Part shown: piece by piece, positions 7,401 through 58,215 of the stretch | Layout of the letters: each line of letters starts with the position of its first letter | Position numbering within the stretch: the first letter of the stretch is position 1 | IMG/VR virus record: IMGVR_UViG_3300027844_002282 | Direction: 5' to 3' (one strand) | Source of the DNA: a virus | DNA: 64,000 nt | Made by a program: the position numbers and the translations under genes | Notes under the pieces: model-generated | The model's input: the letters and a program-made list of their open reading frames with translations, nothing else | Database searches by the model: none | Told to the model about the DNA's origin: nothing

Positions 7401-8450
7401 TTATACAAAATATTTTTGAAGAGTCCCTTTTTTATGTATGATGTTTATAACCTCTTCAACAGAAATGCTATTCATACATTTTTTTGTACCTCTACCCAAA
7501 ATACATTTGTCTAGAGATATGTACTCACAGGCCTGGCACTTTCCCTTCCTAATGATACTTGAATATTTGCCCATATGATCCACCCGCTTTGATGACGGAC
7601 CCTTTAAGAAAACAAACTCGGTGTCTGGTAAGAAAATAGCCGCATGAGCGGGCCATGAGTCTGTACCAATATATAATGACGATCTTTTTAATAAATACAG
7701 ATAGTCGAAGAACGTCGCGTCATCTCCGATGATTTTACTATGTATGATTGATTTGTCAAAAGCCCCCTGATTGCTTGATAATAAATGGACAATGTTACAA
7801 CTCATATTTTCCGATAAATTATTGCTCAACTCATTCCATTTGTCAAAATCCCAAGATTTCAGATGGTGGATATTATCGAGTCTGCTGTCGTGTAATATTA
7901 CATATGGGTCAAACTGGCGAATCATATCATCATGCTTTTCAATCGTCGCGTCTGGAATATCAATATTCACATCTTCATAGCTGACATCTATTCCAAATCT
8001 TCTGGCATCAATAAAATAATCATCTTCATTAACCAGGATGTGTATTAATCCGTTATATATCTCTTCATCAATAGATTTGACCTCTCTACCAAGATCTTTT
8101 GACAAATTAGCCATGTATTCCGCTCTTTTATCTCTAACATATGGAATAAATTCCTCATTGACAGCGTAGAAGAAGTTACAAAGACCATCATTATCGCGCT
8201 CAAATCTATTCCATACGACAAGGTCACAATCTGAAAGGTTTGTCTTCACCGTGTCTTCAGAAGTTCCCCAATAGTCGATCTCCCTGAACCTGGTCTCAGC
8301 GTTTTCAAGAGTGTTTACTATGGGCTCCATATGATTGTTGAAATACAACAACACAAAATCTCCGTCAAACATCTCCTGTATCTTTTTGGCAACAGCTATC
8401 CATAATATAGCGTCTCCAATGCCACCAGTTAGTATAAACCCGACTTTCAT
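7401..8450 (-). CDS. GT9-family (heptosyltransferase-like) glycosyltransferase
   Basis: Likely start MKVGFILTGGIGDAILW at 8450 (GGIGD); YIGTDSWPAHAA matches the GT9 IGxDSGxxHxA pattern; C-terminal CxxC...C...CM.SISVEEV. Confidence 0.8.
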   Translation of the reverse strand: MKVGFILTGGIGDAILWIAVAKKIQEMFDGDFVLLYFNNHMEPIVNTLENAETRFREIDYWGTSEDTVKTNLSDCDLVVWNRFERDNDGLCNFFYAVNEEFIPYVRDKRAEYMANLSKDLGREVKSIDEEIYNGLIHILVNEDDYFIDARRFGIDVSYEDVNIDIPDATIEKHDDMIRQFDPYVILHDSRLDNIHHLKSWDFDKWNELSNNLSENMSCNIVHLLSSNQGAFDKSIIHSKIIGDDATFFDYLYLLKRSSLYIGTDSWPAHAAIFLPDTEFVFLKGPSSKRVDHMGKYSSIIRKGKCQACEYISLDKCILGRGTKKCMNSISVEEVINIIHKKGTLQKYFV

Positions 8451-8475
8451 GCAATACCCCTTTTGCATATTATAC

Positions 8476-8501
8476 AGGATCAAATACAATATTTTAAGAA
8501 T
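8476..8501 (+). promoter_or_regulatory. AGG-N19-GAAT promoter-like motif, overlapping a divergent TATAAT (8469-8474, minus)
   Basis: acAGG atcaaatacaatattttaa GAAT upstream of ORF 8525. Confidence 0.65.
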
Positions 8502-8524
8502 GTATACAAAAATGGAGCATAGCG

Positions 8525-9123
8525 ATGGACTGGTATAAAAAATCAACATATGACCCACAAGAAAACGCCACGCATGATTTTTATGAAAAAATCACTGATC
8601 AAGAATATAGGGTGTTAAATGAGTTTGTTCAGAGAACGCCTGGGCAATCTCAACCGTGGCACCCCGTACCATTCGCAAGAGTTCAGAAAATATGGTCTGA
8701 CTTTAACAAGTTTGGATTTGTTAGAGAGACCCGTGGAATGGACATGATTTGCGATAAAAATTAGATAGTATCGCGAAGCTATACGCCAACACTCAGCTTG
8801 CTGGACATACACAATCCGATCCACAAGAGATATATAAAGATTTTCTTGAGGGCCGTGAAGATATAGAAGAGTCTGTAGAGGAACTTGATGGGGCATTCTC
8901 CGAATGGGTATATGACGAAAAGCAGGGCCAATATAGAATTAGTGACTATGCCTTAGAGCCGCTATTCAACTTAGGCACGAGTCTTCTTATGGCCACGGGT
9001 AGCGCTGAGGAGCAGTTAAGATTAATGGATAGGATATTTAACGTGGTGCATCAGAGGTCTGATTTGACCGCCCTATTTCTTGAAGGTGGCACAAGGGCCT
9101 TTATGAAACTTCATGAGGGCTAA
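8525..9123 (+). pseudogene. Frameshifted gene (about 200 aa if repaired)
   Basis: ORF 8525..8764 (MDWYKKS...) stops at an A5 run; the -1 frame continues 120 codons (LDSIAKLYANTQLAGH...ISDYALEPL...NVVHQRSDLTALFLEGG...) to TAA at 9121-9123. Confidence 0.7.
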
Positions 9124-9968
9124 ATCATAAAAAGCCCATAATTGTAAATGGGGTGTTCTTTTACAACGGATTTGAACCCATCGTCCACTTTAGAGGCCAC
9201 AGCTTCCTGAGGACCCCAATAATGATGAAGATCATCGAATTCCTCAACCACCATATTTCCAGTAGCGTTCATCCCGTGATGAATGTCCAAGACATCTTCA
9301 CCGTGTAAGACAAGGCAGCTGCTGCTAAACCCATCCTTATCTATATTTGTTTTTCCAATCGTTGATTCACAGAACCCATCAATACGGGGCTCAAAGTATT
9401 TACTATCGATCTCTTTCGCCTCTATAAACCTTAGAAAAGCGTCTTTCTTGAATGCATACCTACTGAATGCTACCGTGAAGGGGGAGAAAAACCCATTGTT
9501 CACGTCAAAATACACGCTATTCTTCCAGTACACAACATCGGCTCTTTTAAGCCCTTCGACCACGTAATCAATATAATTTTCTGGATATAGAACATCGTGT
9601 TCGAAAATAATAATATTATCTGATGTGGCAAAACTTGCTGCTAATTTCAACTGGGCTATAATTGTTTCTATGGAGTACTCACGTTCTCCAACAACTATGT
9701 TTTTCACTCTTGTTTCTGCCGAGATAACATGGGGAGAACATAGATCGATAGGGGTTTTTAGAATAGCGTCAGAGAGCCTGTCATGTGTCTCTTTTTCAAT
9801 TCCTGGAAGGTCTTTTTCTATCCAATCCTCACGCACTGGATAGTGGGAAACAATTATTAGCTCGGTGTCTTCATCGTCGATCACGCGAGAGATCGCCTCA
9901 GATAGAGTCCACTTTAGAATCTCTTCTGGGATAAGATTGTTTGTGCAAAATACTATTGAATTCTTCAT
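9120..9968 (-). CDS. Putative GT-A fold glycosyltransferase
   Basis: IIIFEHDVLYPENY, a DxD-like motif after a hydrophobic strand as in GT2-like enzymes. Confidence 0.55.
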   Translation of the reverse strand: MKNSIVFCTNNLIPEEILKWTLSEAISRVIDDEDTELIIVSHYPVREDWIEKDLPGIEKETHDRLSDAILKTPIDLCSPHVISAETRVKNIVVGEREYSIETIIAQLKLAASFATSDNIIIFEHDVLYPENYIDYVVEGLKRADVVYWKNSVYFDVNNGFFSPFTVAFSRYAFKKDAFLRFIEAKEIDSKYFEPRIDGFCESTIGKTNIDKDGFSSSCLVLHGEDVLDIHHGMNATGNMVVEEFDDLHHYWGPQEAVASKVDDGFKSVVKEHPIYNYGLFMI

Positions 9969-10014: not shown

Positions 10015-10956
10015 CTACATAAGACCGACAGTTGAATGTTGTGGGAACGTCAAGTCGCTAACTTCCTTGCCCCACCAATTAAGCCTTGCAGCCTTATATA
10101 TAGCGCTTCCCTTTTGGATAAATCCCATCTCTACATTTGAGACCATAGAATTCCATATATATCTAACCCTTCGCCTTAGAAGAGCTTGCTCTGTTGTCGA
10201 GTAAGAGAGGCCAGTTGGTCGATTGAGAACAAGCCTTGGAGGACCACTTAAAACTTGTGATATCGAAAAGTCTTCTTCAGTGTTGATCCTGTCCTGAAGC
10301 TCATAACGATAAGAAATATCATCGGTCCAGCCAGCTGTGTCTGCGACATGGATGTCAGTATCTCCGGCTGTGACATTTGCGGCGAGAAGGATTTCATCAT
10401 TAACGATGTCGAGATGGATCTTGTTAATGAATAAGTCAAAAATGTAATCGGCATATTTCTGCACAATTCTCGCGGCATTTTCATGTTCGTCAGACTTTGA
10501 ATAGATACTGACGACAACATTATGCTGAATTGAAAGCCCCCCTTGGATATACATCCATTCCATATCATTCATAGACTCTGGCTCAACAGTGATTGTGACA
10601 TCGGGGTTCGGTATGACTTCGCGATCCCCGAATAAAACGTCTTCATCACCAAGGGGAACATGCGCTATTGCTTTTTGGACCGTGGCAGTGTTTGCTACAG
10701 TGAAATCTGACTCTACAGGATTGACTACCCACAAAGTTGTGGTATCAACAACCTTTAGTATACTATGATACTCAATATGTCCATCTTGAATATCGATAAG
10801 AACTATTCCCTCAGCATCTCTGAATCTGAAAGTGCTGTCAACATTTACAACATTTGTCCCAGTCAGGGCGTCAGAGGCCAATACGGTTCTTGACCCCGCA
10901 TTTTTCCTTATGAAATCTATTATTGCATCAGCAACTTGTTCTAATGAGTGAACCAT
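10015..10956 (-). CDS. Tail completion/terminator-like protein with two inserted beta domains
   Basis: Lies between adaptor and tube; core segments ITVEPES, HNVVVSIY, YKAARLNW; two similar inserts (LASDALTGTNVVNVDS; LAANVTAGDTDIHVAD). Confidence 0.55.
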   Translation of the reverse strand: MVHSLEQVADAIIDFIRKNAGSRTVLASDALTGTNVVNVDSTFRFRDAEGIVLIDIQDGHIEYHSILKVVDTTTLWVVNPVESDFTVANTATVQKAIAHVPLGDEDVLFGDREVIPNPDVTITVEPESMNDMEWMYIQGGLSIQHNVVVSIYSKSDEHENAARIVQKYADYIFDLFINKIHLDIVNDEILLAANVTAGDTDIHVADTAGWTDDISYRYELQDRINTEEDFSISQVLSGPPRLVLNRPTGLSYSTTEQALLRRRVRYIWNSMVSNVEMGFIQKGSAIYKAARLNWWGKEVSDLTFPQHSTVGLM

Positions 10957-11192: not shown

Positions 11193-11193
11193 T

Positions 11194-11922
11194 TTAGTTC
11201 TCTAATGCTTGAGTAACATCCAAATTGTCGATAGACAGGCTTACCGCGTCAAACAATTGGGTTCTAACGAATCTTCTACTATTAAATTCTTGCCCAAGCA
11301 ATCTTATCTGCCCGGCCAAAACCCCATTCATGTCAACTGTAGCCAAATTTCTTAATCTTTTACCATAACCTGAAATATCTGGTGATTGATCCGCCACGAA
11401 TATTTTATCAAGGAGTAGCGAGCAAGCATATCTTGCTGCTATTAATGGAATAGGGTCTGGATACGTTATCATATGAACCATCCCATCGCTTCCTGCATCA
11501 TAGGCGTTTTGTGACGGGGCGCTCAGGGTGATATGATTGTAATTAACCACTGTAATTCCACCCTCAACAACGTTTTCAGGAATGGCTGATACGATACCCT
11601 TCTCTGAACCATTGGAGTCTTCTATCAAAACCGCCTCCCCAACCGCAAATCCACCAACGTCTGAAACGTTAACGTCAGTCGATGCTGGCAACATGTTAGC
11701 TATCAAGTCTGCGGTAACCTTTCTAATCTTTATAACAGGAACAACGTACACTTGTGACAACCGACTGTCTATAAACTGAGCCGCGAATCCAATATACTTG
11801 TTCGCCGTGCTTGTAGATATAGTATTTCCAGCTCTACTGGCCACAGTTGGTGTAGTGTTGTCCCCAATTGTAATATTCTTTGGGAGTAACTCCCTCATAT
11901 CTTGTATTGAACAATATGCCAT
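11194..11922 (-). CDS. Head-tail adaptor (Mu gp36/DUF1320-like)
   Basis: MAYCSIQDMRELLP N-terminus, A..FIDSRL...Y.VP core, P..I..IAARYA; carries an inserted beta domain. Confidence 0.7.
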   Translation of the reverse strand: MAYCSIQDMRELLPKNITIGDNTTPTVASRAGNTISTSTANKYIGFAAQFIDSRLSQVYVVPVIKIRKVTADLIANMLPASTDVNVSDVGGFAVGEAVLIEDSNGSEKGIVSAIPENVVEGGITVVNYNHITLSAPSQNAYDAGSDGMVHMITYPDPIPLIAARYACSLLLDKIFVADQSPDISGYGKRLRNLATVDMNGVLAGQIRLLGQEFNSRRFVRTQLFDAVSLSIDNLDVTQALEN

Positions 11923-13244: not shown

Positions 13245-13475
13245 TTAAGTCTTCTTAACAAAAAATTTTGCGTGCTCTCTTATAGATCTGGCTATTCTAT
13301 CATCATCATATATTTCTTTCAATATATACGACCACTCATCACTCATCTCTTCTTCTAATTCATAGCCTCTTTCGTTGAATTTTTCTTCCCACCACTCAAA
13401 AGGTTTGCAATTTATATGTTTAAAACCCTGTTGCCCAAGGGGCGCAGAAAACCAATGAACAGTATCTGAGGTGGA
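13245..13475 (-). pseudogene. C-terminal remnant of a class I SAM-dependent methyltransferase
   Basis: 76 codons preceded by TAG with no start at the 5' end: ...WFSAPLGQQGFKHINCKPFEWWEEKFNERGY..., matching the A-x-PGQ-x-G-x-x-HIN...W...F...GY tail of glycan-locus methyltransferases. Confidence 0.6.
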
Positions 13476-13566: not shown

Positions 13567-14667
13567 TCATGTTTGCTTTTCAAAAATAGCCTTCTTCATC
13601 TGTTCTTCTTGAACATGTTTCACTGGGATACACTTTTCACCGGCAAGCATGGCCTTAGAAAGCCTATGGTATCCATCAATAATCTTCCCGTTCTTTGCTC
13701 TAACCAATATTGGATTGCTAAAATCTGAAGTTCTTATCTTCTTCATATGATCAAAATATATTTCATCAAAGGATGGAGAACTCATAACTGACATCGGAGA
13801 GATCGGTCTTTCGCCCACAGCCCAGGCATCACCGTCATACAGCTGATCAGAAAGCTCTTTTATCTTTATTCGTCTAACGGCATTGCCATCAACTATACGA
13901 TTAAGGATCTCCATATCATATACGTAGTTCCCATCACTATAAACTTGCCCCTGAGTCCACGAGCTATCATCGGCAACTATTTTATTTATGACTACAGTCG
14001 CTGCTGTGGCGTCAACTTTTTCGTTCATTCTGTCTAACACGTGTCTGACTCCTGGATGTAATGTTTCTGGGGCATAATCTTGATCATGCCATTCGTGACC
14101 ATGAGATTCTGTTGCAAACTCAGGGGTTGTTCCCCCTTCAATTATTTGATTTAGGTCTTCTTTTTGATCATCGTCAAGGTTTACTATAAATGTTACATAT
14201 GGGATATTGTTCTCCCACTTCACATAACGTTTACTTGACTCATATTGGTCTTCAACACCATATGGAACTCCACCTATCTCTTCCTCCACCTCTTTCAATG
14301 CTGAGACCCATAATGTTTGAATAGAATTCTCATTCAATATCGGCTTTTCTTTTACAGATTGGTAACTCTTATCAATAATATTAGGATTCTCTCTTAAAAA
14401 CTTTTCAAGATCATCAGGGTTTACATCATAATGATTCATTAGTCTACCGCTAACGTTTCTGTGCTCAAGAATTACCGCTATCTTTTCTTCGTGAGACATG
14501 TCTTTAGAAAAGAAAAATTCCCCGTCTAATGCGCCACCTGGAACGCCCCATGTTCCTGAATCTTCTACAGCACCACGAAGTTGTAATAACATTTTCCCAT
14601 TGTTGACAAACATCACTCCAGACGCCATGGTGCCCCACATCAATGAAGCTGTTTTGTGTATTTTCAT
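13567..14667 (-). CDS. Nudix hydrolase + ParB/Srx-like domain fusion
   Basis: LLQLR...GTWGVPGG...ALKEVEEEIG (split Nudix box), LHPGV; C-terminal PILV...IIDGYHRL. Confidence 0.75.
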   Translation of the reverse strand: MKIHKTASLMWGTMASGVMFVNNGKMLLQLRGAVEDSGTWGVPGGALDGEFFFSKDMSHEEKIAVILEHRNVSGRLMNHYDVNPDDLEKFLRENPNIIDKSYQSVKEKPILNENSIQTLWVSALKEVEEEIGGVPYGVEDQYESSKRYVKWENNIPYVTFIVNLDDDQKEDLNQIIEGGTTPEFATESHGHEWHDQDYAPETLHPGVRHVLDRMNEKVDATAATVVINKIVADDSSWTQGQVYSDGNYVYDMEILNRIVDGNAVRRIKIKELSDQLYDGDAWAVGERPISPMSVMSSPSFDEIYFDHMKKIRTSDFSNPILVRAKNGKIIDGYHRLSKAMLAGEKCIPVKHVQEEQMKKAIFEKQT

Positions 14668-17159: not shown

Positions 17160-18452
17160 TCACTGAGTCTCCGTTATTTTATTTAACTCAACAATCCTAT
17201 TATACACCCTTTCGGCTGACTTTTTCCAAGAATACCTTTCTACAAAAATGTCGCCAAACTCGATTGCTTTTCTTTTCGCCTCATCATAATTATTATACAC
17301 GTACCTCATTTTACTTGCGGCAACGTCTAAAGCGCCTTCTGTAAACCCAGAGAAAATTGAATCGTCATAAATGCTCGAAAGTCTACTCATAGAATAATGA
17401 GGTCTAACCCAGGTGTCTGGTGTTACAAGATAGGAATATTTATGATCAAGATATTCCATCTGACCAGTTGTGTAACTCCCAATAATTGGAATTCTACAAG
17501 CCGCCGCTTCTGAATACGGTAACCCCCATCCCTCGCCCCTTGACAACAATGAAAAAACATCTGCCGAACAATATACTGCGGGCATCACCTCTTCTGGAAT
17601 CAAAGCGTTTGAATGAACGATATGCGGCGGATCTACACCAACAATATCAGCAACCAAATGTTTTATGTCGCTATCATATATGTCTGTTCCATCAAGTGTA
17701 TGAATGACCAAAGAAACGTTCTTGTTTCCACTAAACGCTTTACAAAAAGCCTTTATCAAACAATCCCATCCCTTCCTCCAACTCCAACTTGAAATGGCTA
17801 AAAAGACAAACTCATTTGTTCCTGAAGTGTACTTAACCCTCTCTTTTACAGGCTTGTAAATCTTCTCATCAACGCCCAATGGCATAACTTTTATTTCCAC
17901 GTCAAGGTCAAGGTTTTCAAGAAGATTTTTATTCCAATTCGATGGTACCCAAATCTCGTTGTTCTGCCTTATGCCTTCTATAAAGTCCTCTGAAGAAAGG
18001 GATTGCGTCTCATTCATCATATAGTGAGTGACGTATTCGTCCTTATGAGTTGACTGAACAGCGCCGTAGATTACAGGTGAATTTTCCGGCACATCGCAGT
18101 GTCCGTCCCATGCTAATTCGAACGCTTCCTTGACTGAGATATCGATCTTTTTGATAAAACTGTATAGCTTTATATTCGCGCCTAAATCCCGCAAGTTTTG
18201 AACCATATACCTATTCATTTTTTGATATCCGGTATATTCAAAAACCCCACCAACCCATTTGCAAGATGGCTGATCTGGGTCGCTCTCGACCAGGTTGTCA
18301 TCTCTCATATACTTGTTACATCGAATGACAAACTTCAACAACTTATTTGATTCTGTAACAGAATCTGGACTTGTTAGAACACCGGATTCAACCTTATTTG
18401 GTCTTTTAGTAGACCCACATAAGGTTCTGCTTTCTATGTATATATCATCCAT
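17160..18452 (-). CDS. GT4-family glycosyltransferase (copy 3)
   Basis: IWVPSNWN, MPLGVD, RKGWDCLIKAF, SRGEGWGLPYSEAAAC (E-x7-E). Confidence 0.9.
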   Translation of the reverse strand: MDDIYIESRTLCGSTKRPNKVESGVLTSPDSVTESNKLLKFVIRCNKYMRDDNLVESDPDQPSCKWVGGVFEYTGYQKMNRYMVQNLRDLGANIKLYSFIKKIDISVKEAFELAWDGHCDVPENSPVIYGAVQSTHKDEYVTHYMMNETQSLSSEDFIEGIRQNNEIWVPSNWNKNLLENLDLDVEIKVMPLGVDEKIYKPVKERVKYTSGTNEFVFLAISSWSWRKGWDCLIKAFCKAFSGNKNVSLVIHTLDGTDIYDSDIKHLVADIVGVDPPHIVHSNALIPEEVMPAVYCSADVFSLLSRGEGWGLPYSEAAACRIPIIGSYTTGQMEYLDHKYSYLVTPDTWVRPHYSMSRLSSIYDDSIFSGFTEGALDVAASKMRYVYNNYDEAKRKAIEFGDIFVERYSWKKSAERVYNRIVELNKITETQ

Positions 18453-20172
18453 TCATGTCTCTCAATCTCTCGCCAACTCTTCGGGCTGATTTCTTCCAAG
18501 TAAACTGTTCTATAAACTTTTCTCTCCCCTTAGCGGCCTTTAATTTCGCCTCTTCCTCATGGTCATAAACGTATCTCATCAAATGTGAGGCTTCATCAAT
18601 TGCCTTCTCTGAATAGTCAACAAACCTCATACTTTCATAGAATGGGCTAATGTGCTGCATGCTTGCGTGACACCCAGACACCTTGTCTGGCTTGACAAGG
18701 TATGAGTTATCATTGTTCAAAAACGCTTGTTGTCCACCATGATCAGCACCAATAACGGGAACCCCACTCGCGAGCGCCTCAGAGTATGGCAACCCCCACC
18801 CTTCTCCACGAGTGAATAGAGAAAAACAGTTTGCGGAGTTATATAAATATGGCATAACCTCCGCTGGTAATATGTTATTCATAACGACAAGGTTAGGTAA
18901 GTTTTGGTTGTCTTCTCCAACCCAAGACTTAATGTCTTCTCGCATAGCGGTGATTTGGTTTCGACCAAGTATGGGTACGCGGGTAAAGATCAACAGGGTA
19001 ACATCGTCATCAGCCGTAAAAGCTCTTGTATAGGCCTTTAATAACACGTCAAAACCCTTTCTCCATAGCCATGTTGACATGCTCAAAAAAACAAACCGCT
19101 TTACGCCGAATCCAAACTCTATTTTTGGAGGTCTTGGCTTAAATCTATCAGAGTCAATCCCTAATGGCATTACTTTTATATCTTGCTCAACCCCACCAGC
19201 CTTGAATGTTTGTCTATTCCACTCTGACGGAACCCATATTTCATCTGCTATTTCAAGTCTCTTAGCTAAGTTTGGGTGAATTTTATCTTCCGTCTCCATC
19301 ATCGTATAAGAGACGATCTTTCCATCATGCATACTTGGAGCGTTTGTGGAAAAAACCTTGGGGCTTCCAGGCTTTACTTTCACATCGGAGTACTTCGCTA
19401 TTTTTTCTTGAAACGGAAGCTCGATATCAACACTTGTATCAAATCTTGTCGGCTTAACTCTCAACCCCATGGCATTTAGGTTGATGATATATTGCCTATT
19501 CATATTGGCATACCCACCAGCATCAAGGAGAGGCCCTTCCCAATAGGCGTGGGTCTCAGAATACTCTGGATCGTCACCTAAATCCGAACCACTTAGCTCT
19601 TCTGGCTTATCCGGCTCGCACTCAACCCACATAACATCGCCACTCTTCTTGTTTATCCTGGCCTCTAAAGCGTGTTTCAATTTCAATGTGCCGTTTCTTA
19701 TCGCTTGCTGTATCTCAAGATTCTTGAACTCTTTTTCATCGATAGTTATCTCTTTTCTGAACTCAGTTAATATGACATTTATCGTGTCGATACTAACATT
19801 ATGAATCACATTCTTTTGGATAGTAAACCTTTTCGGCATTTTCTTATTTGTTGTGATCCTCTCAATCGCTTCTTCCGGCGGGATCTCGCCATCATCAACC
19901 CCGATCTTAATTTCAGAAATAGTTTTCCCATCTCCCGGCCAAAGGGTTGTTCCAGGAACAACATTCTTGTCCTTCCCATCAACGTTGGCCATCTTTATAT
20001 CGTCACCATCGGCAAAGGCTCGGACGTGTCCGCCTCTTAATAGTCCAATAATATCTTTTGACGCGGTCAATGTACTATCCGGTATAAATTTCAACCCCGC
20101 GCTTGATGGAGGTATCATAACCTCTATGTCGCTGACAAATATGGCTGACGGGGTGTTATTTAGTATTCTCAC
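18445..20172 (-). CDS. GT4-family glycosyltransferase (copy 2) with N-terminal extension
   Basis: GGYANMNR, METE, RKGFDVLLKAY, TRGEGWGLPYSEALA. Confidence 0.9.
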   Translation of the reverse strand: MRILNNTPSAIFVSDIEVMIPPSSAGLKFIPDSTLTASKDIIGLLRGGHVRAFADGDDIKMANVDGKDKNVVPGTTLWPGDGKTISEIKIGVDDGEIPPEEAIERITTNKKMPKRFTIQKNVIHNVSIDTINVILTEFRKEITIDEKEFKNLEIQQAIRNGTLKLKHALEARINKKSGDVMWVECEPDKPEELSGSDLGDDPEYSETHAYWEGPLLDAGGYANMNRQYIINLNAMGLRVKPTRFDTSVDIELPFQEKIAKYSDVKVKPGSPKVFSTNAPSMHDGKIVSYTMMETEDKIHPNLAKRLEIADEIWVPSEWNRQTFKAGGVEQDIKVMPLGIDSDRFKPRPPKIEFGFGVKRFVFLSMSTWLWRKGFDVLLKAYTRAFTADDDVTLLIFTRVPILGRNQITAMREDIKSWVGEDNQNLPNLVVMNNILPAEVMPYLYNSANCFSLFTRGEGWGLPYSEALASGVPVIGADHGGQQAFLNNDNSYLVKPDKVSGCHASMQHISPFYESMRFVDYSEKAIDEASHLMRYVYDHEEEAKLKAAKGREKFIEQFTWKKSARRVGERLRDMNG

Positions 20173-20175: not shown

Positions 20176-21657
20176 TTATATCTCCTTACATATTTCAGAG
20201 AGCCTATTATATGCTCTGCTAACAGAATGCTTCCAGTCGAATTTTTCTACCAATCTTTCTCTGAGTTTAACCGCTCTTCTTTTGGCCTCTGGGTAGTTCT
20301 CATAGACACTTCTCATTTTTGACTTTAAGAGTTCGAACGACTCTCCTTCAAAGTCTGGGAACAACTGATTCTCATAAAAATGTGAGATCCAAGCCATATT
20401 CTTATACTGTGGATCTTGAGTTTTGCTTACAAAATAATCATTTGGAGGGATCATATATGCCGTCTCTTCATCAAGAAAGTCCTTCTGCCCACCGTGATCC
20501 GATGCGATTACTGGGATTTCACATGCGCCAGCTTCACAATACGGCAATCCCCACCCTTCACCTCTTGAAATAAGCGCAAAACAATCTGCTGCTGCAAAGA
20601 AGTTTGGCATCTTGTTTTCTGGAGTGTAAGTAGAGTGCAACACAATATGTGGCAACTCAGAATCTGGCTTTTTAACCATAGATCTGAATGCCTGGAAATC
20701 TGAAAGTAATCTGTTCTTTGATTTTTGTGATAGGTTTCCGGAAAACCTTGAGGATATAATCAGTGTGGTGTCGTCTTTCGGTGAGAACTCTTCCATATAA
20801 GCCCTAATTAGTATGTCAAAACCCTTTCTGTATGACCATCCAGATATACTCATGAATTTGAATGATCTAACGCTGTCGCCGAAGTCTATTGGCTCAAGAC
20901 CGGGGCGATACCTGTCAGTGTCAACCCCAAGTGGCATGAGTTTTATTGGCGCACTAACCCCGCTATCCTCAAAAACTTCTTTACACCACGAACATGGTGT
21001 CCATATCTCATCAGCCATTGATAATCTGTCGGCATATTCCTGATGAACCTTTTTAGATGTCTCCATCATGGTAAAAAGAATCTTTTTTCCTGGATGAACG
21101 ATAAGATCGGGGATAGTCATCCCAAATATCTTAGGGTAAACGTCTGGAACGTTGGTTATGGCAAGGGACCTCAAAGCGGCCTCTGTTCTGCCGTTGACAT
21201 TCATGATACTATCAAATGGATCTACCTTTACAAGAGCACCGTGATTTCTTAATCCGAAAATAAATGTTCTATTCATCCTGGCATAGCCGCCATAATCAAA
21301 TATTGGGCCTCTATAATGGGTTTTCACTTCGAATTCTTCGAGTCTTGGGTCAGCCATTTCTGAGTACGCCTCTGTTTCGGGAATTTCCGGGTGCGTCAAC
21401 GCCTCAACTTTTTCTATGCTGGTTACCTGATCTATTTCTTGTGGGTCAATGCCTAACGGCTCTGGCCTCTCTTCTATCATTTTTGAAATCGGTGGATTGA
21501 ACTCTTCGCACGGAATAAATAGGTCCTCATCATATTCACTTTCAAATCTCTTTGGTCTGCTGGCGTCTTGGTTGGAGTTTTCATCACCCCCCAGATTTCT
21601 CGTTGAAGCAATATCGTAGGCTGACTTTAGCTTATTGTCGAATTCTGGCAATTCCAT
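20176..21657 (-). CDS. GT4-family glycosyltransferase (copy 1) with acidic N-terminal extension
   Basis: GGYARMNR, RKGFDILIRAY, SRGEGWGLPYCEAGAC. Confidence 0.9.
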   Translation of the reverse strand: MELPEFDNKLKSAYDIASTRNLGGDENSNQDASRPKRFESEYDEDLFIPCEEFNPPISKMIEERPEPLGIDPQEIDQVTSIEKVEALTHPEIPETEAYSEMADPRLEEFEVKTHYRGPIFDYGGYARMNRTFIFGLRNHGALVKVDPFDSIMNVNGRTEAALRSLAITNVPDVYPKIFGMTIPDLIVHPGKKILFTMMETSKKVHQEYADRLSMADEIWTPCSWCKEVFEDSGVSAPIKLMPLGVDTDRYRPGLEPIDFGDSVRSFKFMSISGWSYRKGFDILIRAYMEEFSPKDDTTLIISSRFSGNLSQKSKNRLLSDFQAFRSMVKKPDSELPHIVLHSTYTPENKMPNFFAAADCFALISRGEGWGLPYCEAGACEIPVIASDHGGQKDFLDEETAYMIPPNDYFVSKTQDPQYKNMAWISHFYENQLFPDFEGESFELLKSKMRSVYENYPEAKRRAVKLRERLVEKFDWKHSVSRAYNRLSEICKEI

Positions 21658-21678: not shown

Positions 21679-22350
21679 TTATTTAGGTCGTCTGTATACA
21701 AAATAAATTCCTGTATTCTCCCCTACGTAGTCCTCATAAGGGCTAACGATTCTTATGTGACTCCTGAAAATAGCCATTTTAGATAACTTGGCCTTCAACC
21801 AGGGGAGTGATGTTTGACAAAGCTGGAATTTACCAGCTTTTCTTTTGTCTTCCTTAACAAAATCAGCCATAATCCCACCGGCTTTCATTATCAATGATAA
21901 TACACCGGAATTTCTGCTGCTGAGCGCATGAATGTAATCTAATCCGTCTATTCCAAGAGCTTCTACAAACTTATCCATGTTGCTTTCGGCACATACGACA
22001 TGGTTTTTGCACTTGAAATACTCATTTGTTCTTGGGAATATCCAATATTTACCATACAAGAATCCTTCCTTATGTTTATCGGACCTGATTTTTTGGACCA
22101 ATTCCTTTGGCTTGATTCCAATCTTGTTTCTCAACAATGACGATGCAGTCTCCCAAATAATATTAATTTCTTCTTTCGAAAGATCGTCTAACTTTTTATG
22201 GTATGACAAGACGTTGTCAAAAAGGGGCCGGTCTATAGGATCAAGAGTACGTAGACCTCCGGCCCTCTCTACAAAAACAGCAAGCTCTTCTATGATGGCT
22301 TTTAAGTGCTGTGGGTCTTTATCATTAAGCATTCTATGTGGTCTTGGCAT
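21679..22350 (-). CDS. Hypothetical protein
   Basis: 223-aa basic ORF with RBS and upstream promoter motifs. Confidence 0.7.
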   Translation of the reverse strand: MPRPHRMLNDKDPQHLKAIIEELAVFVERAGGLRTLDPIDRPLFDNVLSYHKKLDDLSKEEINIIWETASSLLRNKIGIKPKELVQKIRSDKHKEGFLYGKYWIFPRTNEYFKCKNHVVCAESNMDKFVEALGIDGLDYIHALSSRNSGVLSLIMKAGGIMADFVKEDKRKAGKFQLCQTSLPWLKAKLSKMAIFRSHIRIVSPYEDYVGENTGIYFVYRRPK

Positions 22351-22432: not shown

Positions 22433-22473
22433 AAAAAAAAAAGGCGGCGCTCGAATAAACGAGCGCCACCTTT
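22433..22473 (-). terminator. Intrinsic terminator after the major capsid gene
   Basis: aaggcggcgctcg-aataaa-cgagcgccacctt stem-loop followed by T10 on the minus strand. Confidence 0.9.
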
Positions 22474-23881: not shown

Positions 23882-24004
23882 TTGTTTTTCCTCCAAAGGT
23901 CTCATTTATACTAAAATCGTATGATTTTAGCAATGTTTTAAACGAAGATAACTGTCTAACGAAAATGTCTTAACGATGTATATAATTCCACTACTGGGAT
24001 ATGT

Positions 24005-50985: not shown

Positions 50986-53253
50986 CTAACTTGAACTTGA
51001 ACTACTTGAGCAACTACTTGAACATGATGTCCATGTTCCAGAGTTCAAAAATTTACCGGACCCGTTATTATACAAAGATCTGGCCATTGCTGCACAGGCT
51101 CGCTCATTTGACAGAGTGGGCTCTTTCCAAACTGCCACCTCATCCATTGTGACATCAAAATTTGACCAATTCCCATGTAAAAGGAATGGGCACGAACTCT
51201 CACTTATAGTCCCATCATAAGATTTGCTCTCCTTCAAAACGCCATCTATATAAAGATGTATATTACTACCGTCTGCCACACCAAAGATATGATGAAAAAC
51301 GTCTTCGGTAACCTCATGATTACCCATTGATGAATAAGTCAAATCTGATTGTCTAATCAGCCAACTAACTCTAAAATGCTGTGAAGAACTCCCATTAAAT
51401 GTAAAGTGGTAACTGCTAAGTTTACCCTCTGAAGATCCACCAGAACCAGAATTGTAATGTTGTTTTACCCACATTGAAATAGCAACCTTATTGGTGGCGG
51501 ATAAATCAATGGAGTCCGGTGCCATCAGACTCGCCGCAGCTCTACCAGTTGGCCCTGGCCCGCGACGGCCTGCGCTTTCACTAAACAAGGATGCGTTGCC
51601 CTCTTTGCCGGAAACTGCGTCAATGGTCTCATTGTCTATTAAATCATTCGACCCTACCGAGTCGAACCTCCTACCAGTCGTTTCCTCCATATCCCAATAC
51701 GCCACTAATTTTGAATCCTGGTCTGTAATGTTGGTACAAAAATTCGTTGAGCTACTCGAACTCGCGCTACTTACAGAGCTTGTGCTGGTACTAACATAGC
51801 TTGAATATGAAGGACTTGATGGGCTAAGCCAACTCGAACACGAACAGCTACTACTGCTGCTTGAGGAGCTTGAGCAAGAACAGCTTGAACTACTCAACCA
51901 GCTTGAGCAACTACTCGAACTACTCGCTACTGTACCATGCTCGAATCTCCAAAATATATGTACTTTTTCATCCCCATCATAGTTTTCACCAGACGTGAAT
52001 GTTATCTTAATATCCTTTGAATCATCAAACCCAAAATTTCCAGGTGGGTGAATACTTCCATTTTCATATAGATCAAACTTACTTCTATCAAGAGTCTCGG
52101 CGGTGTTGGCATAATCAATCAGACCGTCAAAAAATGGATTCAACTTTGTAAAATCATTCAATAATCCATCGTCAAAATATTCTGATAATACCGGGCTTGT
52201 TCCGACAATCACATGTGCATCATACCTGTCTGGGAAAGTTCCCGCCGATATCTCAATAAATGATGACGTGTTGAAAGATCTACCTGGAGTCTTTATAAAA
52301 TCAGACGACTGTAGAACTTTTGCTATCCAAGTCGTGTTCCCACCATCCCAATAAGCCCTGTAAACGGCGAACAGGGCCGTTTTTGTATCTATTGATGGTG
52401 AAATAAAAACCATTTTATTTCCGTACAAGGAGCCGAGTGGTCCGTCCTCACCAAACCCTACAAAAGACGATCCGTCAAAATAAGTGAACCCAGTCGGAGA
52501 ATCTCCAGAATCTCTGTACATCAATGGTGTAACCAAACTTCCAGTATAATCGGAAACGTCTCCAGATGATCCTATATAAATCTCATAATGGATATTAGAA
52601 GACGGTGGCCAGGTGTTAAAGTAATCGCTTATTTCCGGTAGAAGATCTACGGATAATGGTGACGTTCTGTTTTCTCCAGTATTAGAAAAGGTGCTTGCAT
52701 ACAGGTTTATTTTTTTGCCAGAATAACTAGAATACTCGTTAGACAGTGTTATATCACCGCCAGATACTGTGCAGCCCCTCGATCTATGGAATAAGTACAA
52801 GTCCTGAGTGAAATCAATTGTCAAATCTGTTGCTATAAATTTAGACTTTAATAGCCTTGTAGTATGCCATGATGTATACCCCTCTCCAGGCAGGGAGTAT
52901 ATCTTATCATATTCTATTGCCCAGCCATCTATATCTATAGATTCAAACTTATACAAAACATCGGCGGTCAACTCTCCATCCAGAACAAAATCCTGATTAT
53001 ATGTGAGAACATACTCAATATGGGCATAAGAATACCCAATTGGGACATCTGGCAAATCTGTTTCCAGAATTAATATGGTACTGTCTGAATAATAAGGTGG
53101 CGTAATACTAGATTTCGCCCATGACGAAACATCAATATATTTTCTTGGGTTCGATCTATAAATGGTCCCCTCACTATTCAATGTCAAGTCCACATCGCCA
53201 GAATCCACCCCTACAATATGTCCAAAATGCTTGTTTAGTTTTACTTTCTTCAT
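50986..53253 (-). CDS. Fibre-like protein with Ser/Cys tracts and C-terminal LamG domain
   Basis: Likely start MKKVKLNK at 53253; LVAYWDMEE...AISMWVK...FHHI...LYIDG...MDEVAVW; Ser tracts before and after LamG. Confidence 0.75.
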   Translation of the reverse strand: MKKVKLNKHFGHIVGVDSGDVDLTLNSEGTIYRSNPRKYIDVSSWAKSSITPPYYSDSTILILETDLPDVPIGYSYAHIEYVLTYNQDFVLDGELTADVLYKFESIDIDGWAIEYDKIYSLPGEGYTSWHTTRLLKSKFIATDLTIDFTQDLYLFHRSRGCTVSGGDITLSNEYSSYSGKKINLYASTFSNTGENRTSPLSVDLLPEISDYFNTWPPSSNIHYEIYIGSSGDVSDYTGSLVTPLMYRDSGDSPTGFTYFDGSSFVGFGEDGPLGSLYGNKMVFISPSIDTKTALFAVYRAYWDGGNTTWIAKVLQSSDFIKTPGRSFNTSSFIEISAGTFPDRYDAHVIVGTSPVLSEYFDDGLLNDFTKLNPFFDGLIDYANTAETLDRSKFDLYENGSIHPPGNFGFDDSKDIKITFTSGENYDGDEKVHIFWRFEHGTVASSSSSCSSWLSSSSCSCSSSSSSSSSCSCSSWLSPSSPSYSSYVSTSTSSVSSASSSSSTNFCTNITDQDSKLVAYWDMEETTGRRFDSVGSNDLIDNETIDAVSGKEGNASLFSESAGRRGPGPTGRAAASLMAPDSIDLSATNKVAISMWVKQHYNSGSGGSSEGKLSSYHFTFNGSSSQHFRVSWLIRQSDLTYSSMGNHEVTEDVFHHIFGVADGSNIHLYIDGVLKESKSYDGTISESSCPFLLHGNWSNFDVTMDEVAVWKEPTLSNERACAAMARSLYNNGSGKFLNSGTWTSCSSSCSSSSSSS

Positions 53254-53261
53254 TATTACCC

Positions 53262-55130
53262 CTAACTCGAACTGCTCGAACTGCTTTGGGTCCAAGTTCC
53301 GCCATCATAAAATGTTCCATGATCGCCATTATAAATATAGTCAGCCATACTGTCTGCTTCGGCAACACTACTAAGTGGAATGTCTCCCCAAAAAGCAAAT
53401 TCATCAAGGCCCGAATCGTCATCTACACTTATCCATACCTCAGTGTCATTGGAAAAGTCCTGTATTGTGCTGGAAAACGACTCTATACCCGACTGAACCC
53501 CATCGACATATATTATGATCCTATTTATACCAGAATCAGCAATACATAAAATGTGATGCCAATTTGCAAGTGACATCGCCCCAGACGTTATCAATCTATC
53601 ATCAGCCTGAAAAGTAAGTTTTGCACTTCCAGTGTCTAAAAAGTGAGAAACTTCGTACTCATTTGTCTTTCTTATAATTATTTTCCCAGGAGATACATTT
53701 AGTGGGTCTGGGTAATACCAGAAACTCATTATAACAGAACTCGCATGGACCCCGCTTATTCCAGTCACCAAACCAAACGTCACATCCGCCTCTGGTGTCG
53801 TTGCGTTAGTCTTCTTTCCAGGATCTGTTTTTACTGTTGATGCGTCTTTTGTTATCAAATGATTATATGGTAGCACATCATCGGAATGAATCGACCCAGT
53901 AGTCTCATCAAAGTCCCAATGAGCCAGCATATACGAATTGTAAGCATTAATGTCCGAAGTCCAAGAAGAGGAACATGAGCAAGAACTACTACTGCACGAT
54001 GAGGAACACGATGAGGAGCACGATGAGGATGATGAGTTATTGCAAGATGACGAACTACATGATGACGAACTTGAAGAACTGCTTGACACAATCGCGTCAT
54101 CTAAGTTCATCGTGATCGCTGTGTCAAAATTTTTCCATTGATTTTCAGTCTTGCTGAAGTATGTCATGTATATATCTTCGCCCTTTTGGGCGGAGGCGTA
54201 AACAACACCTCTGTTGTCAACGCTTATTTGAGGATATATCAAGTCAGAAACAGCACCAAATGGTGTTGACGATGCAAAGAACCTCCACTCATCATTGTCT
54301 TTACCAAACCCTACAACCGGGACAAATATTGAGTTTACAGGGTCATAGCTTACAGATATCGCATATACATAGCTGTCGTAAATAAAAAATGAGTTATCAT
54401 CTGTCGGGTTCTCTAATGAGCATAATGAAGGGAAGATAGATCTTTCGGTACAGAACGACCTGAAAGTAGAATAAGAGCCAGAGGCCAGACATAGAATTGC
54501 TTCTGGACTCCCTGCATAGTGTTGTATCGTTTCCCCAAAATCTTCTTCTATAATTTCATACGGGTATTCTATATCTCTTTTTACAACAAATAGTATAACA
54601 TCATTCACCATCGACTTGGCATCAACAAGGATATAGTCTGTCAATTCTGCTTTCTTGGTTACCGACGTTGTTGTAACTTCATAAATAACAACGTTGCCTC
54701 CAACTTGAGAGGCCATGAAAATATCATCGGTGTCAACCTTCACTAACTTAGAGAATGATGGAAAGATTCCATTTACACATGCGTCACTATCGATAGCTTT
54801 CCATGTGGTATCAAGATATGTGTAATAGCCACAGTCAAATTGTCCATCAAAAACTCTGTTTGGATTGTTTCCTGTGCCCAAAACTGAGACGTTATCTGAG
54901 GCGAGTTCTACGAGGGACAGGTTCTCCCCCACATAGTCTCTTGGAAGACGGTCTGTCGAGGCTGGGAAAGATACAGTGGTGTCCAACACCTCATCAGTTC
55001 TATAGACTGAAATGTTACCGTCTTTATCTCTAAACAAATAATGGACATAATCATCAGAGAACCTCTTAAAGTCTCTGATGTTTGTTTTTATTGGTGTTAG
55101 GAAGTTTCTTCTGTCATTCTGTGGTTTCAT
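53262..55130 (-). CDS. Fibre-like protein with Ser/Cys tracts and C-terminal LamG domain
   Basis: LAHWDFDE...SFWY...WHHI...IYVDG...LDEFAFW; Ser tract before LamG and at the C-terminus. Confidence 0.75.
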   Translation of the reverse strand: MKPQNDRRNFLTPIKTNIRDFKRFSDDYVHYLFRDKDGNISVYRTDEVLDTTVSFPASTDRLPRDYVGENLSLVELASDNVSVLGTGNNPNRVFDGQFDCGYYTYLDTTWKAIDSDACVNGIFPSFSKLVKVDTDDIFMASQVGGNVVIYEVTTTSVTKKAELTDYILVDAKSMVNDVILFVVKRDIEYPYEIIEEDFGETIQHYAGSPEAILCLASGSYSTFRSFCTERSIFPSLCSLENPTDDNSFFIYDSYVYAISVSYDPVNSIFVPVVGFGKDNDEWRFFASSTPFGAVSDLIYPQISVDNRGVVYASAQKGEDIYMTYFSKTENQWKNFDTAITMNLDDAIVSSSSSSSSSCSSSSCNNSSSSSCSSSCSSSCSSSSCSCSSSWTSDINAYNSYMLAHWDFDETTGSIHSDDVLPYNHLITKDASTVKTDPGKKTNATTPEADVTFGLVTGISGVHASSVIMSFWYYPDPLNVSPGKIIIRKTNEYEVSHFLDTGSAKLTFQADDRLITSGAMSLANWHHILCIADSGINRIIIYVDGVQSGIESFSSTIQDFSNDTEVWISVDDDSGLDEFAFWGDIPLSSVAEADSMADYIYNGDHGTFYDGGTWTQSSSSSSS

Positions 55131-55595: not shown

Positions 55596-55623
55596 ATTCT
55601 TTCATAACACTTCAAACTCCTTT
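55596..55623 (-). promoter_or_regulatory. AGG-N19-GAAT promoter-like motif heading the fibre operon
   Basis: Minus strand aaAGG agtttgaagtgttatgaaa GAAT. Confidence 0.65.
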
Positions 55624-55639
55624 AATTTATAATTGTACA

Positions 55640-56566
55640 TTAACTAAGGCCGTTGGACATCCAACGACTAAAACATTCGTTATTCAAAATGTCCTCACAA
55701 CTACTGTCTATCATTAATTGATGCCTCATTATCGCCCCAAGATAGTTCTTTACCACTTCCCTATCTGGGGTGAAGTCGTCAAACCCTGACAATTTACCTT
55801 CGTAAGTAGCCCCTGAGCCCGTATATGCCGATCTGCCGATGGTCGCCACAGGAATACCACTAAATAGCGCCTCAGTTGCCACTGTTGAATTAATTGTAAT
55901 AACCTTTGAGCATCTTGATATAGATCTATATACAGATTTTTCCAAATCTAACTCCCATCTATCGCCAAATATTTTAACCCCCTCTTCTCTAACTTCTTCC
56001 CAGTCGGATCGGTGCCTTGGGTGTGGTCTAACAATAATTTCCTTGTCTGGGAACTGTTTCTTTACTCTTGACAACAATGATAAGATACTACTCCCTTTAC
56101 CGTAATCGTCATAACAATATTTTACAGGAGCGTCATTCTCTCTTTGTAAAACTACAAGAATCGGACCTTCCGGGTCGTATTCTTGAAAATAATCAACCCA
56201 ACCAAACCTTTCTTCCGCAATTTCATAGAACTTATCTATCTCAAATGACGAGGCGGATTGTAAATACTCCTTATCTGTACATATTGTAGAGTCCGAAAAC
56301 CACCCGTTCGTATCTAAGAATATTCCACTCCCCTGATTGAATAATGCGTTCTCGATAAACAAAAAGTTTTTGCCGTGTTTGTCGTACCATTCTTTTGGAA
56401 CTTTCAAACCCCAGGTAATAATATTGTCATATTCTTTTATAAGATTTATATACTCATTTTTAACGCAAGAAAATCGGACAGATATTTCTTTATCAGTTAA
56501 AACATGTTCTATTTGATGTTTTAACTGATCGTGGTTTTCTGGGAAAAATAAACATGCTACTCTCAT
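55640..56566 (-). CDS. Capsule polysaccharide synthesis (KpsC/KpsS-like) glycosyltransferase
   Basis: ILVVLQ..ND, IIVRPHP, VITINSTVATEALFSGIPV...G...Y.G.G. Confidence 0.8.
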   Translation of the reverse strand: MRVACLFFPENHDQLKHQIEHVLTDKEISVRFSCVKNEYINLIKEYDNIITWGLKVPKEWYDKHGKNFLFIENALFNQGSGIFLDTNGWFSDSTICTDKEYLQSASSFEIDKFYEIAEERFGWVDYFQEYDPEGPILVVLQRENDAPVKYCYDDYGKGSSILSLLSRVKKQFPDKEIIVRPHPRHRSDWEEVREEGVKIFGDRWELDLEKSVYRSISRCSKVITINSTVATEALFSGIPVATIGRSAYTGSGATYEGKLSGFDDFTPDREVVKNYLGAIMRHQLMIDSSCEDILNNECFSRWMSNGLS

Positions 56567-56592
56567 GATTTAATCTCTTATGATGACGATAA

Positions 56593-58215
56593 TTATATAC
56601 TGCTACTACTTGAACAGCTACTTGAACAGCTACTACTGCTGCTTGAGAAACTCATTGATGATGACGAGAGCGAATAGCTCGACGAAGAACTAATACTTTC
56701 TGATGAACAACTACTTGACACCCAACTTGAACAGCTGCTTGACGAACTGCTTGAATTTGTCCAACAAAGGGAACTAACTTGACCGCCAGACTGATTCAAT
56801 GTAAAGTCGCACCCTGTGATATCAATAATCCATGCTGTGCCAGCTAATGGTGCTTGAACGCAAACTTCAACAGGACAAGTCGCCTCAACAATATAGGTGT
56901 TGTAATTCTGATAAGTAGATATTGATCCCGTATCCAATATACTTCCGGTATTATCTGTAACGGTCAATCTGTCTGGAATCGTATACGTCTTAAATTTGAT
57001 AGTCATTGTTCCGCACGATTCTCCAGGTGAACATTGACCAATGGCCTGGACGGAGCTTATAGACTCGCTCGATTTGCTAAACGAACTACTGCTTGATTCC
57101 CAACTTGAACATGAACTCGAACAACTTGAGCTACTTGAGCTACTTGACGAGCTACAAGAGTTACTCGATGAGCTACTTGATATGCAAACGGTACAGGCGG
57201 CATGTGTTGATGGAGGTGTCGGAACAGTGTCATTGCCCTGCCTTTTTATGTAAAAGCAATAGGCGTCGGGTGGGGGACAACACGATAAAAAATTCCACGT
57301 GGTAGTTACTGGAGCACCTGTAAGTTTTGCACTCTTTATCCTAACAATGGATGTAGCATCAATATCTTCAATAGCATTATAGGTAACCTCGAATCCTGCT
57401 CTGGCAAAAGACTCTGTTGGAAGCGGTGGCGTTCCTTCGCCAGAATATTTCTTTCTAAATGTGACAGAGAAACTGTCAAAATAAACGCCTGTGAAAAAAT
57501 TGTACTTAGTCACATCTTTATTCAACATTGTTAGTGGGTCTCTTACCCATGAAGCTGGAGCGGTTCCAGAATACAGCCCGGTATTATTGAATTCTGTCAA
57601 TGTAAGAACAGATCCGCCAGACTCTGGAGCTTCGAACTGGGCTTTTGCCTCCCAATAAAATTCTCCTACACCACTTAGTGATGAGCTTTCCCAACTTGAA
57701 CAGCTTGAAGAGCAACTACATAATGAGCTTTCCCAGCTGGAACAGCTTGAGGAACAGCTTGAGGAACAACTACTACTTGAGGAACTACATGAACAACTAC
57801 AACTTGATGAGCTACAACTTGAGGAAAGACTTGATGAGCTAAAGCTACCAGATCTTGATGATGAAGAACAAGAACAAGAACAGCTTGAACTACTATTCGA
57901 CGAGCTACTGGAAGAACAGCTGCTGGAAGAACTTGAACTGCTTATTTGATCACCAAGAATAGCGGGGAAAATATTCTCCTTATATCTTGATCCGGTTGCC
58001 ATAACTACCGGGCCATTGATCATCACGTTTTTCAACTCTCCCTTTTCTGGATTATTGAAAGCGTCTACCTCATCACAAGAAGAATAGAATGACACATCAT
58101 CAATGGGGTTTTTATTATTCCATTGAAAATCGTCTGGGTAATTTCCCTCCTGATTCACCGAAGAAGCATTGCTTCCCGGTAGCGCTAAGTCTGCGTACCA
58201 ATTTGAAAGTGCCAT
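56593..58215 (-). CDS. Extremely Ser/Cys-rich modular protein
   Basis: Three long S/C tracts separating small beta domains (e.g. YTIPDRL...DTG...GTAW). Confidence 0.75.
   Translation of the reverse strand: MALSNWYADLALPGSNASSVNQEGNYPDDFQWNNKNPIDDVSFYSSCDEVDAFNNPEKGELKNVMINGPVVMATGSRYKENIFPAILGDQISSSSSSSSCSSSSSSNSSSSCSCSCSSSSRSGSFSSSSLSSSCSSSSCSCSCSSSSSSCSSSCSSSCSSWESSLCSCSSSCSSWESSSLSGVGEFYWEAKAQFEAPESGGSVLTLTEFNNTGLYSGTAPASWVRDPLTMLNKDVTKYNFFTGVYFDSFSVTFRKKYSGEGTPPLPTESFARAGFEVTYNAIEDIDATSIVRIKSAKLTGAPVTTTWNFLSCCPPPDAYCFYIKRQGNDTVPTPPSTHAACTVCISSSSSSNSCSSSSSSSSSSCSSSCSSWESSSSSFSKSSESISSVQAIGQCSPGESCGTMTIKFKTYTIPDRLTVTDNTGSILDTGSISTYQNYNTYIVEATCPVEVCVQAPLAGTAWIIDITGCDFTLNQSGGQVSSLCWTNSSSSSSSCSSWVSSSCSSESISSSSSYSLSSSSMSFSSSSSSCSSSCSSSSSI

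Follow-up and report, generated by a model that had tools for sequence, protein, structure and literature searches.

To our knowledge, glycosylation of phage particles has so far been shown only in mycobacteriophages and had been considered rare elsewhere. The glycans on mycobacteriophage virions shield the particles from antibodies. In E. coli, autotransporter proteins are O-heptosylated by TibC, one of the bacterial autotransporter heptosyltransferases (BAHT), which O-glycosylate serine residues of a protein. In the mycobacteriophages Che8, Corndog and Myrna, O-glycans are located at the C-termini of the capsid and tube proteins (Freeman et al. 2023, cited in PMC12619734), and in the C-terminal region of TibC a four-cysteine iron finger (C339, C342, C358 and C370) binds the protein substrate (PMC4358343). 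In this work we consider a stretch of 64,000 nucleotides (IMG/VR record IMGVR_UViG_3300027844_002282; below, “the window”, meaning the whole stretch of DNA analysed) from an uncultured phage of ~250 kb, whose window proteins are on record on a 252,658-bp contig. A preliminary description had proposed that this phage builds a “glyco-coat” on its virion with six glycosyltransferases (GTs) encoded among the structural genes. The phage precedent to which it appealed is real, namely the C-terminal O-glycans of mycobacteriophage capsids and tubes (cited in PMC12619734).

The six enzymes are real, and all six GT genes of the window are intact, as had been described; the methyltransferase remnant and the “fibre” label that accompanied them were not confirmed. 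The folds, catalytic motifs and gene order of the GTs are direct observations, from which we infer that proteins serve as acceptors, which proteins these are and which sugars are used. Glycosylation of virion proteins is, tentatively, the best reading of the locus, and it is strongest for a pair of enzymes in the tail region. The GTs form three independent modules and not one demonstrated system: the modules differ in conservation, and the statements that they make up “one system” with “each GT beside its substrate” went too far. The firmest module is the pair composed of a GT-A-fold enzyme and a GT9-fold enzyme, a constant component of the neck/tail gene string. The “glyco-coat” as such is a good and cheaply testable lead, not a finding. 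For comparison, relatives were collected by means of the capsid protein (165 stretches in IMG/VR, the best 80 of which were kept, with 60-81% identity and many on contigs of 250-550 kb); the closest of them, the IMG/VR record G001 (255 kb), is syntenic with the window over ~80 kb. Every sizeable gene of the window lies on the minus strand (−), and the genes are tightly packed.

Because the open reading frames (ORFs) of the GT-A and GT9 enzymes gave nothing usable in Pfam, PHROG or NCBIfam, they were tested by structure, and the models bear out the folds assigned earlier to the two enzymes between the neck and the tail tube. The AlphaFold model of the first one (282 aa; 9120-9968, −; pLDDT 90) has a Rossmann-like GT-A fold, which Foldseek matched to SpsA, TarP, WrtF and RmlT (E ~1e-7, probability 1.0, TM 0.42-0.46) and also to viral GT-A proteins. 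Alignment of 45 homologues revealed an E-x-D motif, E123-H-D125, in which E123 and D125 are invariant. When the profile was compared with PDB sequences, the same segment was aligned, marginally (E 0.009-0.05), to KfiA and heparosan synthase; Pfam Glycos_transf_2 was not matched by this ORF.

The second enzyme is a divergent GT9-fold protein which probably starts at M37 of the listed ORF, giving 349 aa (7401-8450, −). Its model (pLDDT 92), which begins at the first Rossmann strand, gave structural Z scores of 20.1 with 3tov, 19.0 with TibC, 18.2 with WaaF and 16.5-16.9 with WaaC, compared with Z <=13 for GT-B enzymes other than GT9, and the Foldseek results were concordant. The superposition on TibC (rmsd 3.5, 270 residues aligned) is level with those on the best GT9 structures of the lipopolysaccharide (LPS) type. 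Sequence profiles gave less: Pfam Glyco_transf_9 was not matched at E 0.01 and TIGR02201 reached E 0.07, the orthologue in G001 scored 16.4 bits on Pfam Glyco_transf_9, which is under the cut-off of 22, and a profile of the family produced nothing significant among PDB sequences (3tov at E 0.74). The hallmarks of GT9, known from work on WaaC, are the catalytic base of an N-terminal G-x-G-D motif and a nucleotide-sugar motif D-S-x-x-x-H in the C-lobe. In the phage family, GGIGD (residues 9-13) and GTDSWPxHAA (residues 262-271) are nearly invariant. In addition, all of 36 homologues retain C305, C308, C316 and C325, which sit after the last strand and before the C-terminal helix; this four-cysteine segment, taken alone, had no match among PDB sequences.

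Two side observations concern these genes. An opposite-strand gene (8525-9123, +) is wedged between them in the window; in relatives the two are contiguous or overlapping. The inserted gene begins with M-D-W-Y-K-K and is split into two frames with a break near 8758-8764, which may reflect a frameshift, decay into a pseudogene or an error of sequencing; an M-[NDS]-W-Y-K N-terminal leader was found on none of the window’s GTs. Separately, a metagenomic protein of 2733 aa (P0102) matched residues 134-195 of the GT-A profile in 17 separate stretches and appears to be a repeat protein made of a GT-A sub-fragment.

The position of the pair is constant. Scanning of metagenomes with the GT9 profile gave 22 loci, three of them near-identical copies, with 31-47% GT9 identity over the best aligned segment (28% for two short partial matches). 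In each of the 20 loci having the upstream flank, GT9 is immediately preceded by the GT-A gene, and the tube gene follows GT9 in all 14 loci having the downstream one, so that the proposed linkage of GTs to structural genes in relatives holds well for this pair. G001 and about 20 metagenomic loci share the order adaptor-like protein, 313-aa protein, GT-A, GT9, tube, chaperone-like ORFs and tape-measure-like protein; in G001, too, the pair stands just 5' of the tube gene. The distant relatives G002, G004 and G005 have the 313-aa protein, two small genes and the tube, and lack the pair. Its presence in one subclade and absence from these three genomes fits a single ancient insertion followed by retention. 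Other searches added little: the GT9 profile found only two loci in IMG/VR and the GT-A profile only weak ones, a tube-based locus search in the same database gave nothing, a word-index search for homologues of the GT-A protein returned only the self-match, and GenBank phages yielded no tblastn match to the GT9-like protein or to the 586-aa protein.

The surroundings of this slot vary. A protein of ~120 aa, which probably serves as a tail terminator or in the neck, precedes the tube in G001, G002, G004 and G005 and is absent at 7344-7400 of the window and from the nearest branch (L096-L101). An ORF of ~480 aa found in L093 and L109 (compared: L093:11035-12848) is likewise absent from the window and from this branch, and no homologue of either ORF was found anywhere in the window.

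The sequence itself names no substrate, sugar or glycan, and the acceptors and sugars in the scheme that we propose are putative. The GT-A/GT9 pair would be made late, alongside the tail proteins, and its most likely role is to O-glycosylate one of two virion proteins, the tube protein or the 313-aa neck protein. Using a nucleotide sugar of the host, the GT9 enzyme would transfer a heptose-type sugar onto serine or threonine in a TibC-like manner, after which the GT-A enzyme would attach a second sugar. Plausibly, although on much weaker grounds, the GT4s and the KpsC/S-like gene described below would do likewise for the head and for the Ser-tract proteins. The TibC-like features of GT9 give the glycosylation of virion proteins extra support beyond that available to the preliminary description. 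In its most specific form, namely that a clade of huge phages O-heptosylates its own tail by means of a stripped-down TibC-like four-cysteine GT9 together with a GT-A enzyme, with the head and the poly-Ser/Cys proteins as further targets of a glycan programme spanning the genome, the proposal is possible but, at present, doubtful. The mimicry of LPS or capsule that had been envisaged for such glycans could be suggested from the family names only.

The second module comprises three tandem GT4 genes after the capsid gene, which had been recognised correctly and are supported by Pfam, PHROG and the E-x7-E motif, with one ORF intervening between them and the capsid gene. This ORF of 223 aa (21679-22350, −) opens the GT4 string; it has no family or PDB match, and its homologues occur in 6 relatives, being immediately 5' of a GT4 gene in L010 and L014. 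It is followed by GT4-1 (493 aa; 20176-21657, −), a copy common to 20 relatives, GT4-2 (575 aa; 18445-20172, −), which is also found in G001 and has a long N-terminal extension with no Pfam match, and GT4-3 (430 aa; 17160-18452, −), an extra paralogue, since the window has three copies and G001 two. All three match Pfam Glycos_transf_1/Glyco_trans_1_4 (41-49 bits, cut-offs 26-27) and PHROG 2170 (E 1e-25 to 1e-32). The paralogues are mutually 33-36% identical, with N-terminal extensions that vary, and the E-x7-E motif (E367 and E375 in GT4-1 numbering) is invariant in them and in the two G001 orthologues. The string ends with a NUDIX/ParB-like gene. As a side observation, this gene (13567-14667, −) encodes a weakly matched fusion of NUDIX and ParB/Srx-like domains, and its position at the head/neck boundary is kept in many relatives (L093, L095, L097, L104 and L107).

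Linkage of GT4 genes to the capsid gene is only weak in relatives: among the 55 with at least 6 kb of flank, 20 (36%) have a GT4 gene in the same orientation as the capsid gene and 0.1-8 kb downstream of it, at an insertion hot-spot behind a terminator, and all these genes match GT4-1 best. The capsid C-terminal tail, which is 4-8 residues long, ends in Ser/Thr in 76 of the 80 relatives and is absent in Bacillus phage G and two others. GT4 homologues from phages of Rhodococcus and Streptomyces (24-26% identity) were considered and set aside: they lie beside ribonucleotide reductase and endolysin genes, not by the capsid gene, so these cultured phages lend no support from synteny. Among other cargo, the post-capsid site in loci L003-L077 was also seen to carry DUF7487, a Cas7-like protein, a Cas12f-like TNB domain, an ART-PolyVal domain and methylases of the N6/N4 types.

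The third module is a single gene for a GT of the KpsC/KpsS (beta-Kdo-transferase-like) type (308 aa; 55640-56566, −). The earlier assignment of this transferase within a Ser-rich cluster is borne out by Pfam PF05159 Capsule_synth (52 bits against a cut-off of 20), by profile matches to KpsC 6mgd (E 1.3e-6) and WbbB 5fa0 (E 2e-4), and by its motifs: RPHPR and LQxxNDA, which are invariant or conserved in five homologues, align with KPHPD and GQVESDA of KpsC 6mgd, that is, with the HP and Q-x-x-x-D motifs. The gene begins 26 bp after that of a 540-aa protein (56593-58215, −) and ends 24 bp before the next one. The 540-aa protein contains 31% Ser, has seven Ser/Cys tracts between globular pieces and is without a homologue in G001. 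The cluster also includes a 622-aa protein (53262-55130, −) that has a Ser/Cys tract in its middle, ends in poly-Ser and has a G001 homologue with a poly-Ser tract too, and a 769-aa protein with a LamG domain (Pfam Laminin_G_3, E 7.6e-15), Ser/Cys tracts and a Ser/Cys C-terminus (50986-53295, −). All six Ser codons are in use in the tracts of the three proteins, and this mixed codon usage indicates selection at the protein level. The Ser tracts announced in the preliminary description are real; the name “fibre” was not confirmed, as the only domain recognised was LamG and no match to PHROG or a phage database was obtained.

The KpsC/S-like gene has only four close homologues and is lineage-specific; the proposed linkage to structural genes in relatives does not hold for it, and its adjacency to the Ser/Cys-tract genes is not kept. 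In G007 a Capsule_synth gene adjoins a GT9 gene, and some large relatives have several GT9-domain genes; a heptose kinase (TIGR02198, HldE-type) was not found in five large relatives. As to the tracts themselves, they often close with S-S-W-(E/L/V/T)-S, two of the proteins end with G-T-W-T-x plus poly-Ser, and the poly-Ser tracts of G001 have far fewer Cys.

Several observations weigh against glycosylation of virion proteins and should be considered together. Neither a glycan nor an acceptor is directly evidenced. The phage GT9 is devoid of the N-terminal beta-barrel of TibC, the alignment spanning only TibC residues 97-394, and its cysteines are spaced differently (CxxC-x7-C-x8-C); for both reasons it is not a BAHT member, and it would work like BAHT enzymes only if a virion protein is its acceptor. 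The tubes of phages having the pair show no Ser/Thr-rich tail or insert that is lacking in the tubes of pair-less phages, and a gene order conserved within one clade may reflect descent and not function. For the GT4s, a strong terminator parts the capsid gene from their string. In 33 GT4-less relatives the same site is occupied by LAGLIDADG endonucleases (14 ORFs) and DNA methylases (8 ORFs), with no GT family among the 25 most frequent of its 43 families; the site is a cargo hot-spot, and so the adjacency of GT4 and capsid genes may mean little. Moreover, the Ser/Thr tail of the capsid protein does not follow GT4 presence (2.55 vs 2.38 S/T in the last six residues). The KpsC/S-like gene is absent from G001, though G001 has poly-Ser proteins, and no Ser tract adjoins its homologue in the two viral loci that have one; as this adjacency is not conserved, the link between the enzyme and the tracts rests on one genome. 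Characterised KpsC/S enzymes, finally, use lipid or glycan acceptors.

The main rival explanation, which we regard as somewhat unlikely, is that the GTs remodel the host envelope during infection by acting on the LPS core, the capsule linker or other lipid-linked glycans, with the benefit that superinfection is blocked or that progeny are kept from sticking to debris. The canonical substrates of these enzymes are indeed lipid-linked (the GT9 members WaaC and WaaF are LPS heptosyltransferases, and KpsC adds 3-deoxy-D-manno-oct-2-ulosonic acid (Kdo) to the capsule linker), the PHROG class of the GT4 family is “moron, auxiliary metabolic gene and host takeover”, the GT4s and the KpsC/S-like gene occupy variable, cargo-like sites, and the tail-fibre GT clusters of pelagimyophages and cyanomyophages were read as modifying the host O-chain (PMC7029224), which is the customary interpretation of LPS-type GTs among the structural genes of marine myophages. 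However, for a gene that modifies the host there is little advantage in a position between neck and tube that stays fixed across 31-47% divergence, and co-expression with tail genes would come late for superinfection exclusion. Besides, GT9 is as close to TibC as it is to WaaC and WaaF and has the four-cysteine cluster in addition. A distinctly unlikely alternative is that the functions are mixed, the GT-A/GT9 pair alone serving the virion while the GT4s and the KpsC/S-like gene are unrelated cargo inserted at permissive sites, so that no “glyco-coat system” exists. It is suggested by the differing distributions of the modules, the pair being universal in one subclade, the GT4s present at a hot-spot in 36% of relatives, and the KpsC/S-like gene having four close homologues, none of them in G001.

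Highly improbable, in our opinion, is hypermodification of DNA, in which the GT4s or the GT-A enzyme would glycosylate hydroxymethylated bases of the phage genome. The GTs of phages that glycosylate DNA are TarP-like GT-A and BshA/MshA/PglH-like GT-B enzymes, often encoded near ParB-like genes and methyltransferases (preprint 10.1101/2023.12.21.572611); here the GT4 string ends with a NUDIX/ParB-like gene and the GT-A model matches TarP. Yet thymidylate-synthase-like and Tet/JBP genes were found neither in the window nor in the whole of G001 (the Tet/JBP search having been run without a positive control), and the GT genes belong to structural, not replication, strings. We also know of no case of DNA heptosylation, which counts against this explanation. 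With these alternatives weighed, modification of virion proteins, above all by the tail pair, is the reading that we tentatively retain.

The structural genes around the three modules allow the window to be described as the head-to-tail region of a phage with a capsid of the Bacillus phage G type. The major capsid protein (288 aa; 22495-23361, −; C-terminus ...VSVTSSS) matches PHROG 2522 (E 9e-70) and shares 55% identity with gp27 of Bacillus phage G; a gene for a decoration-like protein (23378-23905, −) lies upstream of it in transcription order. Strong terminator-like hairpins occur at two sites only. The one after the capsid gene (22440-22473, −) has a 14-bp stem with 9 GC pairs, is followed by a T-run and abuts the 3' end of the gene; the other, 3' of the tube gene (6412-6443, −), has a 14-bp stem and a T-run. 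The tail tube protein (292 aa; 6465-7343, −; Pfam Phage_tube_2, E 1.7e-16) is one candidate acceptor, and downstream of its gene small chaperone-like ORFs are followed by a long tape-measure-like protein. The other candidate acceptor of the tail region, the 313-aa neck-module protein (10015-10956, −), is always encoded 5' of the GT-A gene and has no family match and no match among PDB sequences; the adaptor-like protein (11194-11922, −) was recognised by a weak match. The ORFs of 223, 313, 338 and 470 aa had no match in Pfam, PHROG or PDB sequences, and an Rfam search of the window gave nothing.

Further genes of the region deserve a brief mention. The portal protein (40491-42773, −), identified by a weak Portal_Mu match, has a C-terminal endonuclease-like domain of the REase_MTES_1575/DUF559 type (residues 651-734). 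The interval between the portal and the decoration and capsid genes (24070-40482, −) encodes three giant proteins of 1592, 1754 and 2074 aa, parts of which are kept in relatives; in the last of the three, residues 1282-1400 form an AAA ATPase domain. The Ser-tract cluster is preceded by genes for a DUF192 protein and a trypsin-like serine protease (58442-59368 and 62863-63885, −), both kept in G001. The methyltransferase remnant that had been placed at 13245-13475 is an open stretch of 76 codons with no ATG, GTG or TTG start and no Pfam methyltransferase match, and the relatives’ loci contain no counterpart of it.

Should the tail turn out to be O-heptosylated, this would be the first known example of virion glycosylation in phages other than actinophages, and GT9 the first protein heptosyltransferase of viral origin. 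With a GT pair held in place between the neck and tube genes of environmental huge phages, glycosylation of the particle would extend to another phage group and to another sugar chemistry. If the host envelope is the target instead, LPS-type enzymes can become fixed in a tail gene module, which itself would need explanation.

Compared with mycobacteriophages, the window has in common phage-encoded GTs and candidate acceptors that include the capsid and tube, the subunits modified there; its capsid protein belongs to the same broad family as that of Myrna (26% identity) and ends in Ser/Thr, while its tube protein has no Ser/Thr C-terminal tail of the mycobacteriophage type. Unlike mycobacteriophages, these are uncultured environmental phages of ~250 kb, their GTs include GT9-like and KpsC/S-like families, and GTs are found inside the neck/tail string. 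With TibC and the AAH BAHT enzyme (PDB 4rap, 4rb4) the phage GT9 shares a GT-B core of the GT9 type, and its C-terminal cluster of four cysteines lies where TibC has the iron finger; in contrast to BAHT enzymes, it has no autotransporter partner, its neighbours being the neck and tube genes. Its best structural matches (Z 16.5-20.1) are with WaaC, WaaF and other GT9 enzymes (PDB 2h1h, 1psw, 3tov), and it has sequences of the GxGD and DS-x-x-x-H types, yet it differs from WaaC and WaaF by falling under the Pfam GT9 threshold, by an identity of just 11-14%, by its structural-gene context and by the extra four-cysteine cluster.

The KpsC/S-like enzyme resembles KpsC/KpsS and WbbB (GT107/GT99) in its Capsule_synth match and in the HP and Q-x-x-x-D motifs aligned with KpsC. 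Unlike KpsC/KpsS, it is a single module of 308 aa, and no kps, kds or export genes occur in the window; we know of no precedent for a protein acceptor in this family. The GT4s recall GtfA/GtfB of Ser-rich-repeat adhesins in that the same genome also encodes long Ser tracts. However, their scores fall well short of the GtfA and SdgA models (E 0.004-0.05), and they lie 30 kb from the Ser-tract genes, whose tracts, unlike those of the adhesins, contain Cys and are short linkers instead of long repeat domains. Pelagimyophages and cyanomyophages (PMC7029224) are likewise marine phages with LPS-type GTs amid their structural genes; there the GTs are located in hypervariable tail-fibre regions and are read as modifiers of the host O-chain, whereas the GT-A/GT9 pair of the window occupies an invariant slot.

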